Assembly (NCBI RefSeq): GCF_014280175.1
Contig: NZ_CP047931.1
Span: forward strand, 2,070,001-2,102,000
Origin: Synechococcus sp. A15-28
GTDB lineage: Bacteria > Cyanobacteriota > Cyanobacteriia > PCC-6307 > Cyanobiaceae
DNA: 32,000 nt
Reading direction: 5' to 3'
This document shows positions 22,896 through 32,000 of the stretch, piece after piece. A program made the translations under genes and the position numbers. Position 1 is the stretch's first letter. Each line of letters starts with the position of its first letter. Under the pieces are notes generated by a model. That model did no database searches, was not told the origin of the DNA, and saw only the letters and a list, made by a program, of their open reading frames with translations.

Positions 22896-23173
22896 CAGAA
22901 CCAGGGTTTCTCCTGATCGAGATAGAGCTCGCGAAATTCGTCGGTGGATTTGGTGAGGTAAATGACCCCCTCGATCAACCCGATGATGGACATCACACCA
23001 GTGGCAACGCCGCAGGTCACCACTCCACCGGCCAGGCCCACCACCAACATGATGATCCCGGCGTTGTTGTAGCCCAGCACAAACTTGTGGATACCGAAGG
23101 AGCCCAGAAAGATTCCCAGCAAGCCAGCTGCCAGCTTCCTGTTGCTGATCTCGGTTTCAGACAGCTCAGCCAT
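22895..23173 (-). CDS. TM2-domain membrane protein (92 aa)
   Basis: KLAAGLLGIFLGSFGIHKFVLGYNNAGIIMLVV... is the TM2 signature (two helices, GxHxFYLG-like). Its ATG 23173 overlaps the menE stop by 8 nt. Confidence 0.8.
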   Translation of the reverse strand: MAELSETEISNRKLAAGLLGIFLGSFGIHKFVLGYNNAGIIMLVVGLAGGVVTCGVATGVMSIIGLIEGVIYLTKSTDEFRELYLDQEKPWF

Positions 23174-24329
23174 CGGGGTCTGGCGGGTTCCCTGATTCTT
23201 GCGACTGCAACCAGGCCTGCCAACGACGTCGATGCCACTTGCCGGCCTCCGATGGCGCCAGCTCGGGACAGAGCACCCAACGCTGCGGCCGCTCTGCCGC
23301 AGGCCAAAGTCGGGTGAGGTCCTGCAACCGCTCCACGATGTCGGGAGTGCTGCTGCGCACCAGACCCACCAACCGCTCACCCCAGTCCGCATCAGGACGC
23401 CCCAGCAGCAACACCGCCTGGAGTGGCAGGCCTGAGGCCAGCAGGCGGGCCTCCAGCTGTTCCGGAAAGACCGTCTCACCCCCGGAAATCACGGCCCCAT
23501 CCAGCCGGCCCAGGATGCGCAGATCCGCCTCGAGCACAGCCCGATCCCCGGAACGCCACCAACCACCGGCGTCGCGCAGGCCCTGCAACTGTTCAGGCTG
23601 CTGCGGCCGCCAACAGGCGATCGCCAGACGCCCCGTTTTCACCTCCAGGGCCCCATCTGCAGCCAGCCGCAGCTCAACGTCCATCAGCGGGACACCGCAG
23701 CTGTCGTCCCCCTGCAGGAAGCGTTCCGGCGGCAAAGCCGTCACCATCGCCGCCGTCTCCGTGGCGCCGTAGCAAGGTGACAACCTGATTCCCGCCTGGC
23801 GGGCCTGATCAGCCATCACAGCCGGGAGCGCGGCACCCCCCACCCAGATCACGCTGAAGCGTTGCAGCCAGTCGATACCGCTTGGATCCGCCAGAAGCCG
23901 ACCGAGCTGGGTGGGCACCAAGGACAACAGGGCAGGCCTCTGGCCCCACCCCGCCTGCGCTTCGCAGGTCCCGATCAACTCCTGAGGCTGCTTGAGCGCA
24001 GTGGGCTCAAGGGAAAGGTGGGGCACCCCCCAACAGTGGCTGCGCCACCAAGGCATCAATCCACTGACGTGATGCATCGGCAGGGGATTACAGATCAGCA
24101 CCTCCCCCGGATCCAGACCGATGCCCTGCAACCAGTGAGCCGTTGCAACTGCTGATTGATCCAGATGCTTCAGAGGTTGCAGACAGATCCGCCGACCACC
24201 ACTGCTGCCGCCGCTGCTCACCAGCACTCCTGGACCGGGCGGCAACAGCTGCTGAGGCAGCGCTTCCGCTCCCCTGAGGGGCATCCAGCGCCCGTCGCGG
24301 AACCCTTGCAGCAGCTCACGGGCCGTCAT
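23166..24329 (-). CDS. menE: o-succinylbenzoate-CoA ligase
   Basis: Adenylate-forming enzyme motifs (SSGGSSGGRR P-loop-like, YGATET, GWWRSGDRA). ATG 24329 overlaps the menC stop (ATGA). Position in the men chain. Confidence 0.85.
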   Translation of the reverse strand: MTARELLQGFRDGRWMPLRGAEALPQQLLPPGPGVLVSSGGSSGGRRICLQPLKHLDQSAVATAHWLQGIGLDPGEVLICNPLPMHHVSGLMPWWRSHCWGVPHLSLEPTALKQPQELIGTCEAQAGWGQRPALLSLVPTQLGRLLADPSGIDWLQRFSVIWVGGAALPAVMADQARQAGIRLSPCYGATETAAMVTALPPERFLQGDDSCGVPLMDVELRLAADGALEVKTGRLAIACWRPQQPEQLQGLRDAGGWWRSGDRAVLEADLRILGRLDGAVISGGETVFPEQLEARLLASGLPLQAVLLLGRPDADWGERLVGLVRSSTPDIVERLQDLTRLWPAAERPQRWVLCPELAPSEAGKWHRRRWQAWLQSQESGNPPDPDG

Positions 24330-25303
24330 GGTGAGGCCGCCTCCCACACCGCAGCCGGGTCGTCGCTGAACAAGGGGCCCGAGGGACACCAGCCCGGCGC
24401 AAGCCCCGGTGCCACGGGCGTCGGCCCCTGCAGCTGCAGCGCCGCCAGATGATGCAGCCAGCGGCGCCCGATTCCCGTTTCAAAGGCGGTGCTGAGCATC
24501 CGATAAGGCACGCACTCCTGCAGCTGCCGCAACAGCGGCCGGGGATCCCCCTCCAGCAGCGGACGCCGCACCTGCCATCCGCCCCAACGGTTCCGCAGCG
24601 ATGGGTCCTGGTCCAAGGATTCATCCAGGGCAACCGGCCCCAGGCCCGCCAGATCCTTCAGGCCCTGCTGATCGTCCGGTGCCAGAGGTTGCTCCAGCCA
24701 GGCGAAGCGTGGATCCCCCACCAGCCGTTCCATCCAGCGGCGGGCCGTGGCCCGGTTCCAGCCACCGTTGGCATCCAGCCGCAGGGACGCCGTGGATGGC
24801 AACCGCTCCAACAAGATCTCCAGCAACGACCACTCCTTCGGGTCCGGGTCCGCCGCCACCTTCCACTTCAGCGTCAACTCCCGCTGACGACCCCGCTGTT
24901 CCAGCAATTGCTCCAGTTGCGGCAGCATCCGCTCACCTGCCGGCAGCAGCTCAGCAGACCTCGGCGCCGCCAGCCACCCCTGTCGGCCAGGGCTGCCCAC
25001 CAAACCGTCCAACTCCGCCAGGGCTGCCCCGACCCCGAAGCCCAAGGCGGGAGACAGCCTGGGCAGCCGCTGCTCGAGCTGTGATCGATGCAGCAGTTGA
25101 CCAGTCAGCTGCTGCAAACCAGCAGCGCACGGCGATCGCTCGGCTGGATCGAGCGGCGCCACCTCACCCCAGCCCAGAGCACCATCGCTCGCCTCAATCC
25201 GCAACAGCCAGCCTTCGCGGTCTTCAATCACCCCCGCCGCGGTGCGCAATGGCTGCTGCAGCAAAAAGCGAAAGCGGCGCCACTGCAGCTGGAGAGGCAT
25301 CAC
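24326..25303 (-). CDS. menC: o-succinylbenzoate synthase (enolase superfamily)
   Basis: LKWKV...LRLDANGGW...LEQPL...LDES pattern of metal and catalytic residues. Start GTG 25303 or ATG 25300, both overlapping the menA stop. Confidence 0.85.
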   Translation of the reverse strand: MMPLQLQWRRFRFLLQQPLRTAAGVIEDREGWLLRIEASDGALGWGEVAPLDPAERSPCAAGLQQLTGQLLHRSQLEQRLPRLSPALGFGVGAALAELDGLVGSPGRQGWLAAPRSAELLPAGERMLPQLEQLLEQRGRQRELTLKWKVAADPDPKEWSLLEILLERLPSTASLRLDANGGWNRATARRWMERLVGDPRFAWLEQPLAPDDQQGLKDLAGLGPVALDESLDQDPSLRNRWGGWQVRRPLLEGDPRPLLRQLQECVPYRMLSTAFETGIGRRWLHHLAALQLQGPTPVAPGLAPGWCPSGPLFSDDPAAVWEAASP

Positions 25304-26232
25304 AGCCCCCCCAGGGCCAGTCCAAACGCCAGACCCAGGCCGTTCCAGGCCTGGAACCGCAGGGCCAGAAACTTGCTCCCGCTGATGCGGTCGGGCTGGT
25401 CATGGCAACGCCGCATCAATCGGATCAAAGCCAGACCCGCCGGAAGCCCCAGACCGCTCAGCAACACGGTGAAAGGCCAGTCTCCGTTCAGAACCGGAAG
25501 CCACTCCAGCGCCAGCGTCAAAGCCACAAACCAGGGCACCAACGCCGCAGCCCGTCCTGTGCCGAGACGCACCACCGGTGAACGTTTGCCGTGGGCCGCA
25601 TCCTCCTCCACCTGATGAAAATGTGAGCAAAACAGCACCAGGCTGGTGGCCAGGGCCGGCCCTGACCCCAGCATCCAGGCGGTTTCCCAAGGAATCGACG
25701 TCACCCCCCTGGGCTGCAACACCATCAGGGCCGCTGCGGTGGCAAAAGGCCCAAATGCCAGCCAGCACAGGGGCTCACCCAAGCCGCGATAGCCAAGGCG
25801 GAATGGCGGGCCCTGATACACGAAACCCAGTCCGCAGCACACCAACACCAGGGCCAACACCGTCCAGCTGCTGCTCCAGGCCAACCAACCCATCAACAAC
25901 AACCCCAGGGCCAAGGCGGAGGTCGCCCCCAGCGCCACCCGGTCCCGCCGTCCGGTGAGGTTCACCACGGAGTGGGGTTTGCCGGTGGTGTCGACACCCG
26001 TGGCCGCATCAAACACATCGTTGCTGAGGTTCTCCCACAGCAGCAGCAGGATGGCCGCCAACAGAAACCCGAACAACTGCGTCCAGCGCAGCGATCCAAC
26101 GGCACCGAGGCGCCACCCCGCCGCCAGCAGTACCGGCATCACCGCCACGGAATACATCGGCCACTTGATCGCGGCTTTCCACAGCAAACGCCGTTCGGCG
26201 TAACGGGATGCGACAGCCTGCGGCTTAACCAT
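25300..26232 (-). CDS. menA: 1,4-dihydroxy-2-naphthoate phytyl/polyprenyltransferase (UbiA family)
   Basis: NLSNDVFDAATGVD (NxxxDxxxD) motif, polytopic. Start at ATG 26232 (MVKPQAV...) within track ORF ..26412. Confidence 0.9.
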   Translation of the reverse strand: MVKPQAVASRYAERRLLWKAAIKWPMYSVAVMPVLLAAGWRLGAVGSLRWTQLFGFLLAAILLLLWENLSNDVFDAATGVDTTGKPHSVVNLTGRRDRVALGATSALALGLLLMGWLAWSSSWTVLALVLVCCGLGFVYQGPPFRLGYRGLGEPLCWLAFGPFATAAALMVLQPRGVTSIPWETAWMLGSGPALATSLVLFCSHFHQVEEDAAHGKRSPVVRLGTGRAAALVPWFVALTLALEWLPVLNGDWPFTVLLSGLGLPAGLALIRLMRRCHDQPDRISGSKFLALRFQAWNGLGLAFGLALGGL

Positions 26233-27706
26233 GGACTGGACCCGATTCCCGCGGGTGATCACCCATACATTTGAACAGTATCCCCGGCCGGAACCGCCGC
26301 AGATGTCGGCTGATTGTTCGTTCAGCAGTGTTCTCGAGGCCTCCCGGCAGGGCTGGATGGCCGCAGGAGGAGAGGACACGCTGCTCAGCCTGGCCCTGCC
26401 CCTCGATGGCATTGACCCGCTTCAGGCCCTGCCGGTGCTGGCAGATCAAGCCCCGTTCCAGATGCTCATGGACGGTGCCCCAGGGCTTTGTCTGGCGGCT
26501 GCCGGGTCCTGCCAGCAACTGGAACTGGACGGTGCACGTCGTTTCGAACTGGCCCAGCGCTTCGCCGATCTCAGCCTCAGCCGTCTGGTGGACACCAGGC
26601 CCGTCTGCCCCGCCCAGGCCAGGCCAAGGGTGGTGCTGCGCTTCCGATTCTTCGATCAGGTCGGGGAACACCACCACGGAGTCATGCACCCCCCAGCTGT
26701 CGAGGCGGTGCTGCCCCGCTGGCAGCTCACCCGTCAGGGACGCCGTGGCTGGCTCCGCCTCAATGGGGTCGTCAACGCCACCGCCGAAGCCCGGAATCTG
26801 GCCGAACAGCTCTGGCTCAAATGGGAACAACTTCAGAAAGAGCTGCCCCAAGTCGCGTCCAGTCGATCACCGACGCAGCTGACCAACGGCAACACAGAGC
26901 ATTGGAAACAGCGCTACAGCCGTGCTGTCGAACGAGGCATCGATCTGGTTAACAAGGGGGAACTGCACAAGCTGGTGCTGGCGGTGCGGCACACCATTGA
27001 TCTGGACACGCACTTCAATCCCTTGCCCCTGCTGCAGCGACTGAGGCGTCAGCAGGCCGGAAGCTGCCGCTTTCTATGGCAGCGGAACGCAGACGACGCT
27101 TTTTTCGGCGCCTCCCCAGAACGTCTGCTGAGCCTGAGGGGTGGCTGGCTGCGCAGCGATGCCCTCGCCGGAACCGCAGGCGAGGGCGATGACGGAAACC
27201 AACTGCTGCGCTCTGACAAAGATCGTCGTGAACATGAGCTGGTGGTGGACACGCTCACCAACCAGCTGTTGCAGATGGGACTGACACCCTGTCGCCGCCG
27301 CCTGCCGCAGCTGGCCCGCCACGGCCAACTCACCCATCTGCACACCCCGATCACGGCTGAGGTGCAGGAAAGGCCAGTGCTCAGGCTGGCAGAACAGCTG
27401 CATCCGACCCCTGCCGTCGCTGGCTTGCCACGACGGGAAGCCATGGCCTGGTTGCGCACGCTCGAACCCTTCGAGCGAGGCAACTATGCGGCACCTATTG
27501 GCTGGATTGATAACCAAGGTGATGCAGAGCTTCGTGTCGCCATTCGCTGCGGCCACGCCCGAGGACATCAGATGGAGTTCACAGCCGGCGCAGGGCTCGT
27601 TCGCGGCTCATGCCCGGATCGGGAAATGCAAGAAGTAGATCTAAAATTACAAGTTCTGATTAAGGAATTTGACGCAGCAACAATTTTTAATGTCAGAAAT
27701 GCCTGA
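26231..27706 (+). CDS. menF: isochorismate synthase
   Basis: Chorismate-binding motifs LHPTPAVAGLPR, ERGNYAAPIGW and FTAGAGLVRGS. Start ATG 26231 or ATG 26303 (MSADCS...). The last ~27 codons are AT-rich. Confidence 0.9.
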   Translation: MDWTRFPRVITHTFEQYPRPEPPQMSADCSFSSVLEASRQGWMAAGGEDTLLSLALPLDGIDPLQALPVLADQAPFQMLMDGAPGLCLAAAGSCQQLELDGARRFELAQRFADLSLSRLVDTRPVCPAQARPRVVLRFRFFDQVGEHHHGVMHPPAVEAVLPRWQLTRQGRRGWLRLNGVVNATAEARNLAEQLWLKWEQLQKELPQVASSRSPTQLTNGNTEHWKQRYSRAVERGIDLVNKGELHKLVLAVRHTIDLDTHFNPLPLLQRLRRQQAGSCRFLWQRNADDAFFGASPERLLSLRGGWLRSDALAGTAGEGDDGNQLLRSDKDRREHELVVDTLTNQLLQMGLTPCRRRLPQLARHGQLTHLHTPITAEVQERPVLRLAEQLHPTPAVAGLPRREAMAWLRTLEPFERGNYAAPIGWIDNQGDAELRVAIRCGHARGHQMEFTAGAGLVRGSCPDREMQEVDLKLQVLIKEFDAATIFNVRNA

Positions 27707-27764
27707 TCAAAGGGTTCCCCTCCTTCAGCAATACTAAAATAAGAATAATGAATTAATCGAGGAA

Positions 27765-28904
27765 ATGGCAGCAAACGATGTTGCGTCAAATTTTTATGAC
27801 GCTTTTGTCGCTTACCTGCAAAGCGAAAAAGGAGAAAGGAAGGAAAGCAAAAAAGCTTTGAGATCTTTGATGTCTAAAGATTTCAACTTGAAAGTCTCTG
27901 GCACACCAGGAATTGTCTCCAACGCCTACGGAGCATCCAATCAACCCGTCAAAAACGACGGCACGGGAGATCCTCTCTACAGCGACGGCATTCCTAATGG
28001 ACGCTCCAACGCGATGAAGCGGTTCAAGGCACTCCGCAAAGAAATCACCACCGACTCAGTCGAAGTTGATTTCGTCATCGGCGGGGAATTCGGCACATCA
28101 TTGACCATCACAGATCCGGTGACGTGGGCAACAGAACCCATGACGGACAGGGTGGTCATACTCTCTGACCATTACGCAACGGCCAAAAATACCAACAACA
28201 ATTTCCGCCTTGATGTCGCGAGCTTCTTCACAGTCGGCGATGACGACAAAGTCAACGACTTTGAAATGCGCTTCGACTCCTATGTGATGTCACAAGCCAT
28301 GTCAGGCATGGAGCCTTTGATCGCCAATCCAGATATGGACGAGGCGATGCAGGGGTATCGCGATAGTTCTGTAACCACAGATCAGACCATTAACGGCACA
28401 TTTACATTCTTCGGGACATTTGCAACCGCGGCACCCCCAGATCCAGACAACCTTGACGTGATCGCACCCGTTCTAACGGACGAGGTGAGAGTCAAGTTCC
28501 AGGGAGATCCCAACTTTCAACTCTCGGCCCGCGACATAATTGGCATCGGGAAGGATGACTATTTAGCCGTACAAAAAGGCTCATGGGTGCAAAGCATCAG
28601 TGAACTTTTCACGATGGAAGAAATCTATGCTCTTGATGACATTTCTGTCGCAAACTATAAAGAACAACGGATTTCATCTGGACCTGGTTTTTCCGAAGAA
28701 GGCCATGGGCCGAGCCTAGGAAATCGGTTTGTTATGGACGCAGCAATCATCACCTACATTCATAACAACGAGGAAAACCCTGACCTCCCTCAACTCACTG
28801 CGTCAACGGAAGGGTTATTTGATACAGCACCGATCGTGGAAGCAACCTACGGATCAGAGCCTTTTCCAATTCCTACCCAAAGCTACGTTGGACCATTGGC
28901 GTAA
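27765..28904 (+). CDS. hypothetical protein A, putative tandem NTF2/SnoaL-like fold (379 aa), paralog of 29007..29996
   Basis: Long uninterrupted ORF in lower-GC DNA, with GAGGAA immediately upstream of the ATG. Shares blocks with the next gene (see finding). No signal peptide or TM segment. Confidence 0.8.
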   Translation: MAANDVASNFYDAFVAYLQSEKGERKESKKALRSLMSKDFNLKVSGTPGIVSNAYGASNQPVKNDGTGDPLYSDGIPNGRSNAMKRFKALRKEITTDSVEVDFVIGGEFGTSLTITDPVTWATEPMTDRVVILSDHYATAKNTNNNFRLDVASFFTVGDDDKVNDFEMRFDSYVMSQAMSGMEPLIANPDMDEAMQGYRDSSVTTDQTINGTFTFFGTFATAAPPDPDNLDVIAPVLTDEVRVKFQGDPNFQLSARDIIGIGKDDYLAVQKGSWVQSISELFTMEEIYALDDISVANYKEQRISSGPGFSEEGHGPSLGNRFVMDAAIITYIHNNEENPDLPQLTASTEGLFDTAPIVEATYGSEPFPIPTQSYVGPLA

Positions 28905-29006
28905 TACTTTGCAGGGCACCATGCCAGTTTAATCTTTTCTTTAGATCAAAGAAGGTCGTTCTGCGAAATTTTAGTTAAAATAAAGTTAAGCATACCCAGC
29001 TTAAAG

Positions 29007-29996
29007 ATGGCCACTGCAGCAGAGATTTCATCAAACTTTCTCGCAGTCTACGAAGATTATTTGAAAGGAGAGGCATCTGCCAGAGATCTTCGTCCCTTTT
29101 TGGCCAAAGATGTCGTACTAGACAGGTCTGGTCAGGCCGGCCTGATTTCTTCAGTCGGCGGCGTCTTTGAGGGCCGATCAACAGTAATCAAAAACTTCAA
29201 ACGTTTGCGCCAACTGGTCTCTACTGAAGAGATGCCAGTTCATGACGTCCTGTCCAACAGTTTTGCTGTCAGTCCAACCTTTGAATTTACGCCTCAAACC
29301 GACAGAATTGCTGCGGCCACAGACCAGTTCTCAACTGTCAGAGAAAACGGCAAGTCGTTTCGTCTCGACCAAATTGCCTACATGACTGTTAATGCGAAGG
29401 ATCGAATCTCAGATCTTCGCTTCCACTACGACAGCTACCCCATGGCTGAAGCCATTGTTGGGGAGGACGATCAGATTCCCAACCCAAACATGGATGATGT
29501 GTTGGAGCCTGTCCGAGATCGTGACATCGATACTCAAACAGCATTCGGAATCGTTGGTAACTGGTTTGGCACCTTCGGAGGAATTCAAGGTAGCAAAACA
29601 GGAGACACATCTGGACTCACAGCTCTCGAGCCAGTAACCCAACCCGACGCGCTGATTAAATTCCAAGGCGATCCAGACCTTCTCCCCTTTGCCGACTCAG
29701 AGGTTCGCCAAGGAATCGACGCCTTTATTCAGACATTCGCAGATCAGTGGGAACACAGCTACGACCGTGAATTCGAAATCCAGGAGTACTTCTATGAGAA
29801 CGACAAAGTGATCGTGAATACACGCGAAAAGCGCATGGCCATTCCTTCGAATCGTCATTATGACGTCATGGTCTCTATCGTTCAAACTGCATCGTCTGAA
29901 AATGGAGGCCGCGTCAATTCCAATGAGGGAATTTTTGATACCATGATCACAGTGACCGCTTTCGAGGGAGAGTATCCCTTCGTTAATGCTTGCTAA
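29007..29996 (+). CDS. hypothetical protein B, putative tandem NTF2/SnoaL-like fold (329 aa), paralog of 27765..28904
   Basis: Long ORF with colinear shared motifs with protein A. Followed by an intrinsic terminator. Confidence 0.8.
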   Translation: MATAAEISSNFLAVYEDYLKGEASARDLRPFLAKDVVLDRSGQAGLISSVGGVFEGRSTVIKNFKRLRQLVSTEEMPVHDVLSNSFAVSPTFEFTPQTDRIAAATDQFSTVRENGKSFRLDQIAYMTVNAKDRISDLRFHYDSYPMAEAIVGEDDQIPNPNMDDVLEPVRDRDIDTQTAFGIVGNWFGTFGGIQGSKTGDTSGLTALEPVTQPDALIKFQGDPDLLPFADSEVRQGIDAFIQTFADQWEHSYDREFEIQEYFYENDKVIVNTREKRMAIPSNRHYDVMVSIVQTASSENGGRVNSNEGIFDTMITVTAFEGEYPFVNAC

Positions 29997-30045
29997 ATCA
30001 TCCGAGGAAAAGTTGAATCGCCACAGTCCTGTGGGATGAATCCAG

Positions 30046-30073
30046 AAGCCGACCTGAAAAGGCCGGCTTTTTT
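30046..30073 (+). terminator. rho-independent terminator after gene B
   Basis: AAGCCGACC-tgaaaa-GGCCGGCTT stem (9 positions, one A/C mismatch) running into TTTTTT, 50 nt after the stop at 29996. Confidence 0.6.
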
Positions 30074-30094
30074 GTGGGTTGCTCTACAAATCAA

Positions 30095-30122
30095 TTGCCA
30101 GGAGCTCAGAAATATTTAGAGT
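30095..30122 (+). promoter_or_regulatory. candidate sigma70-type promoter for the aldo/keto reductase
   Basis: TTGCCA (30095..30100), 16-nt spacer, TAGAGT (30117..30122), 24 nt upstream of ATG 30146. Sequence match only. Confidence 0.3.
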
Positions 30123-30145
30123 ATATATGTACGAATACGACTCAA

Positions 30146-31321
30146 ATGAAGTATCGCCTTCTCGGTAGGTCAGGACTACGCGTTTCCGAAATGTGCCTCG
30201 GGTGTGGCACGCTCGGGACCAATTGGGGAGATTTAGGGGCCAATCAAGAAGAGTCCAATAAGATCCTCGAAGGCTTCGCCAATGCAGGTGGAAACTATCT
30301 GGACACCTCAAACCGATATCAAGAATCGCAGTCAGAGCAGTGGGTCGGTGACTTCATTCAAAGAGAAAGAGATTTCTTTGTTGTCGGAACGAAATATTCC
30401 CTGGGTGATGGCGCAGCAGATTTCAATGGTGTTGGCAAGCCAACCAATCAAAAAGACCCGAACAACCGCGGTAATCACCGCAAAAACCTGAGGCGATCGG
30501 TGGAGGGCAGCTTGAAGCGCCTGAAAACTGATTACATCGACGTCCTTTGGCTTCACATCTGGGATTACACAACCCCATTTGATGAAATCGTCCTGAGTGT
30601 CAATGATCTCATCAAAGAAGGCAAAGTCCTCTATGCAGGCTTGTCCAGTGTGCCTGCGTGGCAGGTCTCACGCATGAACACCTATGCCGATTATCACGGT
30701 CTGCACCCGTTCATTGCACTACAAAATGAGTGGAGCCTGGTCGAGCGGTCGCACGAACCAGAATACCTGCCCATGTGCAAAGAACTCGACATTGGAATGA
30801 CCTGCTGGTCCCCACTTCACGGTGGACTTTTATCGGGTAAATACACCACCGATTCCGTGGATCCCTCAATTCCGAATCGAGTACTACCGCACGTCAAGGA
30901 CAGCAGTCAATTCTGGTACGAAGCAACCCAGAGGAACCTGGCCATCCTGAAAGAACTTCAACCCATCGTGGACGAAATTGGAGAGCCATGGACTGCATTT
31001 GCGCTGCGCTGGCTGATGCAACAAAAGGAGACCGTCACGATTCCGATTTTCTCAGTACGCACCGCTAAGCAACTCACTGATGCATTGCGAGCTACAGAAT
31101 TTGAACTCAGTGACGAACAAATGGCAAAAATCAATGCCATCTCATCACCTGCGATCACATCGCCGTACCCGGCCTTTGGCGCTTACCCATACACGATGCT
31201 TGAGTACGGAAGCCCAGCACTCCCCAACTTCTTCTCAAGGGCACTGCTTTATGGAGAGACCGAGGCAATGATTGAAAACCACCGTGTTCCTCATCCCTAT
31301 CAGTTTCAGATGGAGGGCTGA
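30146..31321 (+). CDS. aldo/keto reductase family oxidoreductase (391 aa, long form)
   Basis: MKYRLLGRSGLRVSEMCLGCGTLG N-terminus. Tetrad candidates D (YLDTS), Y (NRY), K (VGTKYS), H (VLWLHIWD). SLKRLKTDYIDVLWLH block. The track ORF starts at GTG 30074 inside the terminator T-tract, so ATG 30146 is preferred. Confidence 0.85.
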   Translation: MKYRLLGRSGLRVSEMCLGCGTLGTNWGDLGANQEESNKILEGFANAGGNYLDTSNRYQESQSEQWVGDFIQRERDFFVVGTKYSLGDGAADFNGVGKPTNQKDPNNRGNHRKNLRRSVEGSLKRLKTDYIDVLWLHIWDYTTPFDEIVLSVNDLIKEGKVLYAGLSSVPAWQVSRMNTYADYHGLHPFIALQNEWSLVERSHEPEYLPMCKELDIGMTCWSPLHGGLLSGKYTTDSVDPSIPNRVLPHVKDSSQFWYEATQRNLAILKELQPIVDEIGEPWTAFALRWLMQQKETVTIPIFSVRTAKQLTDALRATEFELSDEQMAKINAISSPAITSPYPAFGAYPYTMLEYGSPALPNFFSRALLYGETEAMIENHRVPHPYQFQMEG

Positions 31322-31389
31322 CCCGCCCAGCTGAATCCAGGACGTTTGTGGCGTTTTTCAGACTTTTTATCCTGCAGAGAAAAAAGCAG

Positions 31390-31395
31390 TAGAAT
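31390..31395 (+). promoter_or_regulatory. candidate -10 box TAGAAT upstream of the outer-membrane protein gene
   Basis: TAGAAT lies 20 nt upstream of ATG 31416. There is no convincing -35. Confidence 0.2.
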
Positions 31396-31415
31396 TCCTC
31401 AAATGCTTATTTTAG

Positions 31416-32000
31416 ATGAAGCGGACTTCAGCAATCATTGCATGTCTTGCGACGTTTGCTTCACCTGCTCTTGCAGGAGAAGAGTCGGAATCCACAAATT
31501 GGCTGCCTGGCTCTCAACCCGCTGAGGCAGTCATTGAGGACTCCGAGTCTGAAATCACACCAGAACAGATTGCTGATCGAATTAAAGAGCTCGAAATTGA
31601 GCTGATCAAATTAAAGAAAGCCGCAGGCGTTTACGGAAAAGGCAAAAAGATTGCTTTGCCCAAAAACGGAATTTACGTACAGGCCGATATCGGGATACAA
31701 CAGCGTGAATGGTCAGGGGAAAATGGCAATACTCAGTTGTTCTTCAACGAGGGCCTCTACGGTGGTCTAGCTGTTGGCTATCGCTACGACCGCAATTTCC
31801 GTTTCGCGTTTGAATACTCTGAAATGAATAATGATGTCAGCGATATGCGAGCAGGTAATGGTGGCCAACTCTTCCGAGATCCTAAAAATAAAGATGTCAT
31901 TCTTCAGGATGGATCGTCTAAAGTTTCCGGTAATGGTGATGTAAAACTGCAAAGCTACACACTAAATGCATATTATGATCTGAATGGGTTTGGTCATGAA
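31416..32000 (+). CDS. 5'-partial gene: secreted outer-membrane beta-barrel protein (OMP_b-brl/OmpA-like barrel type)
   Basis: Absent from the ORF track because it has no stop in the window. Hand translation from ATG 31416 is open for 195 codons to the window end. It gives MKRTSAIIACLATFASPALA|GEE (signal peptide), an acidic stretch, the coiled-coil-like EQIADRIKELEIELIKLKKAAG, then amphipathic strands YVQADIGI, GLAVGYRY, FRFAFEY and LQSYTLNAYYDL. Confidence 0.7.
   Translation, partial: MKRTSAIIACLATFASPALAGEESESTNWLPGSQPAEAVIEDSESEITPEQIADRIKELEIELIKLKKAAGVYGKGKKIALPKNGIYVQADIGIQQREWSGENGNTQLFFNEGLYGGLAVGYRYDRNFRFAFEYSEMNNDVSDMRAGNGGQLFRDPKNKDVILQDGSSKVSGNGDVKLQSYTLNAYYDLNGFGHE

Follow-up and report, generated by a model that had tools for sequence, protein, structure and literature searches.

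What kind of protein is encoded by two adjacent genes, A and B, that lie next to menF in Synechococcus sp. A15-28, and what might these proteins do? Both genes are located in the 32,000-nucleotide stretch of contig NZ_CP047931.1 that we analyzed (the window), and RefSeq labels both products (WP_186586929.1 and WP_186586930.1) "hypothetical protein". An original prediction, made by reading the sequence, described A and B as tandem paralogs, each apparently an internal duplication of an NTF2/SnoaL-like domain. We find that they belong to a rare family of two-domain NTF2-like proteins that occurs in a conserved setting of carbonyl and redox enzymes. The role of the family we infer from this setting: the company of an aldo-keto reductase (AKR) and a GMC oxidoreductase points to a small-molecule role, probably one that involves an aldehyde or ketone.

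Fold and internal duplication of A and B

The two proteins align colinearly over 368 columns with 28% identity (BLASTP, 137 bits, E=7e-42), a similarity far above chance level. The paralogy proposed by eye is thereby confirmed, and our open reading frame (ORF) calls and motif coordinates agree with the gene positions and with every peptide block quoted in the original prediction. A search of public databases finds A, at 100% identity, as a hypothetical protein of Synechococcus sp. A15-28, and B is named "ketosteroid isomerase-like protein" in JGI/IMG; other public names within the family are "hypothetical protein". Full-length orthologs of A and B are seen in dozens of metagenomes. Comparison with a metagenomic ortholog, at dS ~0.5, gives dN/dS values of 0.156 for A and 0.096 for B, as against 0.011 for the neighboring AKR gene and 0.085 for OMP1, an outer-membrane protein (OMP) gene farther downstream. 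Because A and B are under purifying selection, we regard both as real coding genes.

Domain searches and structure prediction assign B to the NTF2-like fold. B matches Pfam SnoaL_2 (PF12680) at 35.4 bits, above the cut-off of 27, in two separate stretches, and its halves match weakly when scanned singly (E=0.0065 for the N-terminal half and 2.8e-4 for the C-terminal half). A reaches 13.1 bits, which is under the same cut-off, and its halves scanned singly have no match in Pfam. Within the family, SnoaL_2 was matched in 10 of 14 members (best E=9.9e-11). A first AlphaFold run on B, which used 14 close sequences, gave a good N-domain and a poor C-domain (pLDDT 64). It was superseded by an AlphaFold2 model with distant members added, in which pLDDT is 92.4 and pTM is 0.90; none of the five models is below 89.9. 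This model contains an identical order of elements twice (residues 1-151 and 176-320), each copy consisting of two helices, a strand, a helix, an antiparallel sheet of long strands, and a C-terminal helix. Used as a Foldseek query against the PDB, it retrieves more than 300 NTF2-like matches at E<=0.001, among them limonene epoxide hydrolase (LEH), ketosteroid isomerase (KSI), and SnoaL-like "putative isomerases". Single-domain matches (3ec9, 3dm8, 1s5a, LEH 1nu3, and KSI-like 7epn) have target-normalized TM scores of 0.64-0.86. Each half of B is thus modeled as an NTF2-like alpha+beta cone. Structure was modeled for B alone; by full-length homology to B, A presumably has the same fold. Sequence searches of the PDB (phmmer and profile) give no match for B or its C-half, and the N-half finds marginal matches only (3dm8, E=0.011, plus a repeat artefact in 7pl2).

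The two domains are joined by a conserved segment that runs from a (Y/F)DSYxM(S/A)(Q/E)A helix to the motif NP(D/N)MD. As had been predicted, the latter is a conserved linker: it lies within the inter-domain segment of the B model (residues 152-175), and N159 and P160 are invariant.

Evidence that the domains derive from one another comes from comparing profiles of the two halves, each built from twelve to thirteen diverse sequences. With hhalign, these profiles match at 94.9% probability (E=4.7e-8) over 137 colinear columns. A shallow, Synechococcus-only alignment had given no signal in the same comparison (hhalign 0.75%), and was superseded by the diverse one. The halves share a matched, family-specific ending, in which YDSYxMSQAxxG corresponds to FDSxITxTAFxG. 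As a control, each half was compared with three single-domain SnoaL/NTF2 proteins from the family's own gene clusters, and neither matches (<=0.4%). Because the halves match each other and not these controls, the duplication is specific, and is not a reflection of generic NTF2 similarity. The profiles indicate that the two domains arose through internal duplication. The fold and the duplication that had been read from the sequence are therefore both borne out, the fold of A through homology, and our searches revealed neither another fold nor a strong match to a well-characterized enzyme family.

The family is very rare and has no characterized member. An exhaustive profile search of 1.84 billion representatives retrieved 22 proteins at E<=0.001, and just 11 at E<=1e-30; word-index searches put the number of clusters at 23 for A and 3 for B. 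In the literature, we found no study of any family member and nothing relevant on the cluster, the accessions, or slr1852-54. Members range from marine picocyanobacteria to wastewater Gammaproteobacteria, and both an identity matrix and a tree divide them into two groups. One is an A-type clade (A, P0019, P0020, and P0023) with mutual identities of 49-79%, and the other consists of B, P0027/28, P0030/31, and P0032-35. B is 32-43% identical to non-Synechococcus members, as against 30% to A, and the tree places A and B across the deepest split in the family. They are thus ancient paralogs. The term "tandem paralogs" holds in that they are neighboring paralogs, but not in the sense of a recent, local duplicate. 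Related islands with an A-type gene alone exist. One member of the P0019 cluster, HCP39595.1, is filed under a Verrucomicrobiales metagenome-assembled genome. The other members come from marine metagenomes, and a binning error is the probable explanation.

Two inserts are characteristic of A-type proteins (Table 1). The Gly/Asn/Asp-rich insert noted in the original prediction is real. Its sequence is kept among A-type proteins and is missing from B-type and distant members, and by alignment to B it is located in the beta1-alpha3 loop of the N-terminal domain. A second insert, which that prediction missed, is placed in the C-domain directly after an invariant E-x-R strand.

Across a wide family alignment, the invariant residues (B numbering) include P96, D142-S143-Y144, A149, N159-P160, F190, G221-D222-P223, A229, G236, E274, R276, D311, G321, and P324-F325; D121 is nearly invariant. 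No column of this alignment has 50% or more His or Cys. Some members have additional regions. P0030 (loci L015-L017) and P0031 (L030) carry a fused DUF4114 domain at the C terminus, and the P0030 gene, which lies in a local GC dip of a high-GC genome, is followed by an OMP1 homolog (37% identity, E=3e-54). The N termini of P0032-P0035 resemble signal peptides. A and B have no signal peptide, and extending either gene upstream to encode one is impossible.

The island beside menF and related gene clusters

GC content drops from ~65% to ~48% directly after menF (26231-27706), and the low-GC island that begins here (Table 1) is horizontally acquired. Orthologous metagenomic contigs (L002-L005) contain the full island, in which A and B are followed by AKR, OMP1, OMP2, and a GMC oxidoreductase gene on the minus strand, and then by high-GC gshB. 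In A15-28, OMP2, GMC, and gshB would lie beyond the window end, as judged from these contigs. The remainder of the window consists of core metabolism genes.

Table 1. Coordinates of features in the window
Feature	Coordinates	Strand	Details and evidence
Low-GC island	27707..32000	.	~47-50% GC (genome ~65%); GC profiles; same-site variant island
Gene A, A-type tandem NTF2-like protein	27765..28904	+	379 amino acids (aa); ORF; BLASTP vs B; dN/dS
A, N-domain	27765-28307		residues ~1-181, aligned to B
A-type insert 1	27921..27998	+	Gly/Asn/Asp-rich; NAYGASNQPVKNDGTGDPLYSDGIPN; A residues 53-78; alignment
A, linker	28308-28376		residues ~182-204, aligned to B
A, linker motif NPDMDE	28326-28343	+	motif position
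A, C-domain	28377-28901		residues ~205-379, aligned to B
A-type insert 2	28677..28721	+	SGPGFSEEGHGPSLG; A residues 305-319, C-domain; alignments
Gene B, B-type tandem NTF2-like protein	29007..29996	+	329 aa; ORF; Pfam; AlphaFold2; Foldseek; dN/dS
B, N-domain	29007-29459		residues 1-151
B, linker	29460-29531		residues 152-175
B, linker motif NPNMDD	29481-29498	+	motif position
B, C-domain	29532-29993		residues 176-329
Terminator-like hairpin and U-run after B	30045..30073	+	RNA fold of 30030-30080: -18.7 kcal/mol, z=-3.06 vs shuffles
AKR, mechanical GTG start	30074..31321	+	415 aa; Pfam Aldo_ket_red E=3e-70
OMP1 start; runs past window end	31416..32000	+	translation; 90% identity to L002 OMP1

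The terminator-like hairpin after B was missed by a simple consensus terminator scan, because its stem contains a bulge. Given this hairpin, the sequence suggests that A and B form a two-gene transcription unit apart from AKR. The true start of AKR is probably the ATG at 30146, as orthologs are 392-394 aa. A promoter-like site lies at 30095-30122. In NCBIfam, the AKR comes closest to the models for methylglyoxal reductase YdjG, Kv-beta, and YghZ, without reaching the cut-off of any, and a conserved C-terminal extension of ~60 aa is common to this protein and the AKRs of loci L019 and L022. The 295-aa OMP1 combines a signal peptide with a coiled coil and a beta-barrel, ends in YTF, and has weak matches to Pfam Surface_Ag_2 and OMP_b-brl. 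OMP2, likewise a beta-barrel protein, is 330-346 aa and ends in TTTF.

None of the six cassette proteins matches a PADLOC defense model, and no relative was found among IMG/VR viral contigs. Four of 14 family members show an apparent similarity to the anti-CRISPR protein AcrIIA4, which scores 16-18 bits where the cut-off is 27; in B it falls on an acidic stretch (residues 217-260; 29655-29790) and is most likely spurious.

Other observations concern the flanks. The menF/gshB junction has the appearance of a hot spot for islands, in that at least two diverged low-GC cassettes (41-50% GC, host ~65%) occupy it, one with both A and B (the window and L002:7000-15500) and the other with an A-type gene only (L012). 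A low-GC gene for a giant protein (>3133 aa; L002:1-3291) lies just past menE in a position where A15-28 has a thioesterase gene and ndhH, so that this flank is variable too. Upstream of menA, on the minus strand of the window (23166-25303), two genes share 64 nucleotides as called: that at 23166-24389 is of the menE type and AMP-binding, and that at 24326-25303 is of the menC type. These two assignments are based on synteny with L002.

Relatives of the cassette occur in several arrangements. At the same menF/gshB site, the L012 island has a single A-type gene, AKR, OMP1, OMP2, and GMC, but no B. Its tandem NTF2 protein is 51-52% identical to A, as against 71-84% identity between each of the remaining four proteins and its counterpart. 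Marine loci L020/L021 carry genes for an epimerase-like protein, a STAS protein, an isoamylase, a second STAS protein, and an RsbW-like kinase on one strand; next come those for the tandem NTF2 protein, OMP1, OMP2, a MIP channel, AKR, GMC, an X25-domain protein, ThiJ/DJ-1, and a thiamine pyrophosphate (TPP) enzyme. The channel, between OMP2 and AKR (L020:13778-14395), is a short MIP/aquaporin-family protein of 205 aa; together with the OMPs, it would form a complete two-membrane route for a small neutral solute. In L019 and L022/L023/L029, a signal-anchored tandem NTF2 protein is encoded within one long, same-strand cluster. The L019/L022-type order begins with the same run of epimerase-like, STAS, isoamylase, STAS, and RsbW-like kinase genes, continues with ThiJ/DJ-1, a TPP enzyme that resembles decarboxylases/carboligases, and a 151-154-aa protein, and then has SnoaL_2, tandem NTF2, AKR, SnoaL, GMC, DJ-1, and glyoxalase, with GAF-PP2C nearby. 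The L019/L022 AKRs are 46-47% identical to the window AKR over its full length, including the C-terminal extension, and the GMCs are 36-38% identical.

The combination of tandem NTF2, AKR, and GMC is thus found in the A15-28 type, L012, L019, L020/21, and L022/23/29, with identities of 46-84% among AKRs and 36-76% among GMCs. By tblastn, Candidatus Contendobacter/Competibacteraceae have a tandem NTF2 gene with a TPP enzyme, ThiJ, DJ-1, glyoxalase, two STAS proteins, isoamylase, RsbW-like kinase, and PP2C. The TPP enzyme, ThiJ/DJ-1, glyoxalase, both STAS proteins, isoamylase, and RsbW-like kinase co-occur with the tandem NTF2 gene in four lineages, and redox or carbonyl enzymes are present at every long-flank locus of the family. 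The models in NCBIfam nearest to the accessory enzymes are benzoylformate decarboxylase/acetolactate synthase, PfpI deglycase, glyoxalase-I-like YaeR, and methylglyoxal/glyceraldehyde-3-phosphate reductases. We encountered no description of this supercluster (L019, L020/L021, L022/L029, L006-L011, and L026-L027) in the searchable literature.

Part of the supercluster has a known counterpart. The icfG operon of Synechocystis PCC 6803 (slr1852-slr1862) encodes the epimerase homolog Slr1855, the STAS proteins Slr1856 and Slr1859, the isoamylase Slr1857, the PP2C phosphatase IcfG, and Slr1861, a kinase/anti-SigC factor, and has been implicated in glucose and inorganic-carbon regulation (PMC8670252, PMC12329169). 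Full clusters carry an icfG-like run consisting of a GlcNAc-2-epimerase-like gene and the STAS, isoamylase, STAS, and RsbW-like kinase genes, with PP2C nearby; the two STAS proteins, the kinase, and the phosphatase make up an IcfG-type partner-switching module. The likeness is limited to gene neighborhood, and the A15-28 window has no such module.

Possible functions

The proposal that we favor, though only tentatively and as something less than probable, is that A and B bind a small molecule in a pocket, probably as acid/base enzymes, and act on an aldehyde, ketone, or alcohol metabolite shared with AKR and GMC. Their chemistry would be of an isomerase, hydratase, or cyclase type, as in the SnoaL, KSI, and LEH relatives, and could be carried out by the invariant residues D121 and D142-S143-Y144 in the N-domain and D222, E274-x-R276, and D311 in the C-domain (B numbering). 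GMC would oxidize and AKR would reduce the shared metabolite, such that the cassette might constitute a conversion or detoxification route for a reactive carbonyl or sugar-derived aldehyde. In the full cluster, this route would be tied to alpha-glucan breakdown and carbon-status signaling, and the two OMPs (plus the MIP channel in one island type) could pass the compound across the envelope. Because an A-type or a B-type protein alone can be the sole tandem NTF2 protein of a cassette, A and B in A15-28 may be sub-functionalized isoforms or may form a hetero-complex.

Several observations weigh against this proposal. Purifying selection on A and B is about ten-fold weaker than on the neighboring AKR, and the A-type gene diverges fastest within the cassette (48-52% identity, as against 71-84% for its neighbors in L012 and 36-73% in L020). 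Members of the proteobacterial type have signal peptides or anchors that the adjacent AKR and GMC do not have, so that the compartments may differ, and, according to a review of the superfamily (PMC3924330), NTF2-like domains that are secreted tend to bind ligands without catalyzing reactions. AKR and GMC are absent within 10 kb of the tandem NTF2 gene in the Contendobacter clusters. Also, no accessory enzyme reaches an equivalog cut-off in NCBIfam. Finally, the conserved E-x-R and R-x-D strands may instead build an interface between the domains.

Some of these observations favor the main alternative, which we consider possible but doubtful, namely that A and B are non-catalytic ligand binders or carriers of the envelope. 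Together with the two OMPs, in the periplasm or at the outer membrane, they would serve to bind, ferry, or sequester a lipid or a small molecule that is hydrophobic or reactive. The tendency of secreted members noted above, the fast evolution of the tandem NTF2 protein relative to neighboring enzymes, and the signal-peptide-like N termini of P0032-P0035 all fit such a role, as do the DUF4114 fusions (one of which, P0030, adjoins an OMP1 homolog) and the location of the gene beside OMP1 in 4 of 4 cyanobacterial arrangements. However, neither A nor B has a signal peptide or could gain one through an upstream extension, non-cyanobacterial clusters have no OMP genes and their neighbors are cytoplasmic enzymes, and the Asp, Glu, Arg, Ser, and Tyr residues that the family keeps invariant in each domain are more typical of catalysis or of very specific recognition. 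Structural similarity raises the question of whether A and B might be cyclases or hydrolases of the Lsd19/MonB type, or LEH-like enzymes, in which every domain would open an epoxide formed by the flavoenzyme GMC in a secondary-metabolite or lipid-epoxide pathway. Lsd19 (3rga, 4rzm) and MonBI-MonBII (9kw6, 9kw8) are the best full-length Foldseek matches of B (E from 7e-10 for 3rga to 1e-7, with both halves aligned) and share its double-NTF2 architecture, many LEH structures come next, and the cassette does have a flavoprotein gene. We nonetheless judge this function improbable. Full-length superposition of Lsd19 and MonB on B gives TM scores of just 0.30-0.39, with a root-mean-square deviation of ~16-17 A and 8-11% identity. 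Sequence and profile searches of the PDB, taken to E 10, retrieved no Lsd19, MonB, or LEH sequence, and the loci examined contain no polyketide synthase and no Lsd18-type epoxidase. Moreover, GMC enzymes catalyze alcohol oxidation and are not known to be epoxidases.

The resemblance of the clusters to icfG might instead suggest iota-class (COG4337/COG4875-like) carbonic anhydrases, which have repeated NTF2-like domains; inorganic-carbon regulation is connected to the icfG-type module, one island type has a MIP channel, and the algal iota-class structures 7c5x and 7c5y are among the top Foldseek matches (E ~2e-7). Their TM scores are only 0.17-0.23, however, and Pfam matches in the family are to SnoaL_2 and SnoaL only. 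The His-His-Ser-Ser motif and catalytic His197 of this class have no counterpart in an alignment in which no column is even half His, and AKR, GMC, TPP, and DJ-1 neighbors have no obvious role in CO2 hydration, all of which makes this identification very improbable. From their bare annotation, and from the lack of a Pfam match for A, one might suppose that the A and B ORFs are gene remnants in decay, or false gene calls, within a functionless junk island. This supposition is effectively refuted by selection (dN/dS of 0.10-0.16 over dS ~0.5) and by synteny kept across distant lineages; the high-confidence model of B and the full-length orthologs in metagenomes also argue against it.

A broader version of the acid/base enzyme proposal can be formulated, although we think it unlikely in its entirety. 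The tandem NTF2 protein would be the signature of an undescribed supercluster, dispersed among distant bacteria, in which a partner switch of the IcfG type and enzymes of alpha-glucan degradation are joined to the TPP enzyme, DJ-1/PfpI, glyoxalase, AKR, and GMC, and which couples carbon-status signaling to the handling of reactive carbonyls. The protein itself would be a new, two-pocket acid/base enzyme, possibly at the envelope, unlike characterized NTF2-like enzymes. The island of marine Synechococcus would then be a reduced form of this supercluster, acquired together with outer-membrane channels of its own and mobile as a unit of niche adaptation.

Few small-molecule scaffolds are as versatile as the NTF2-like cone, and identification of the ligand could be informative in two ways. 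The effectors of the icfG module in cyanobacterial carbon regulation are still poorly understood, and the ligand could reveal the target of this module. It could also explain why some oligotrophic Synechococcus maintain a low-GC island at menF/gshB. Should the function of A and B be that of a common isomerase or binder, the family would still have been correctly annotated and the island defined. What makes the family of interest is chiefly how rare it is, together with the conserved and so far undescribed supercluster of which it is a marker.

Comparison with known NTF2-like systems

To our knowledge, fused NTF2 pairs are known from few systems only. The statement in the original prediction that no characterized family has this fused arrangement was nevertheless too strong, because Lsd19, the MonBI-MonBII entry, algal iota-class carbonic anhydrase, and TcpC are all fused double-NTF2 proteins.

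Single-domain SnoaL_2, LEH, and KSI-like proteins have the fold of each half of a family protein. They are ~130-150 aa and are usually non-covalent dimers, whereas the family has two diverged, fused copies with a conserved linker, and no known catalytic motif can be assigned to it. The LEH pocket contains an Asp-Arg-Asp triad plus Tyr and Asn. The candidate counterparts in the family are R119-x-D121 with D142, and E274-x-R276 with D311; compared as positions in the sequence, their spacing and order are unlike those of LEH.

Among the fused proteins, Lsd19 reportedly uses the acid/base pairs Asp38/Glu65 and Asp170/Glu197, one per pocket. Because full-length superposition is poor, the domain arrangement of B differs from that of Lsd19 and MonB. 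The family also has motifs of its own in the linker and at the domain ends that are unlike these proteins, namely (Y/F)DSYxM(S/A)(Q/E)A, NPDxD, GDPxxLPFAD, and E-x-R.

The iota-class carbonic anhydrases of Bigelowiella (Bn86287, 7c5x/7c5y) and Anabaena (all2909) resemble the family in having repeated cone-shaped alpha+beta barrels in each chain. Their C-terminal His-His-Ser-Ser motif and the catalytic residues Thr106, Tyr124, His197, and Ser199 (PMC8132391) set them apart: where the corresponding strand ends, the family has (Y/F)DS in its N-half and FD(S/T) in its C-half. TcpC, a VirB8-like protein of Gram-positive type IV secretion systems, has two NTF2-like domains with a short linker and is envelope-associated and non-catalytic (PMC3548508). 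It is membrane-anchored, whereas A and B have neither an anchor nor a signal peptide. No conjugation or type IV secretion genes occur in any locus, and TcpC/VirB8 is neither a sequence match nor a top structural match. The family of A and B therefore differs from each known double-NTF2 system in sequence, motifs, and context, as well as in domain arrangement where this is testable.

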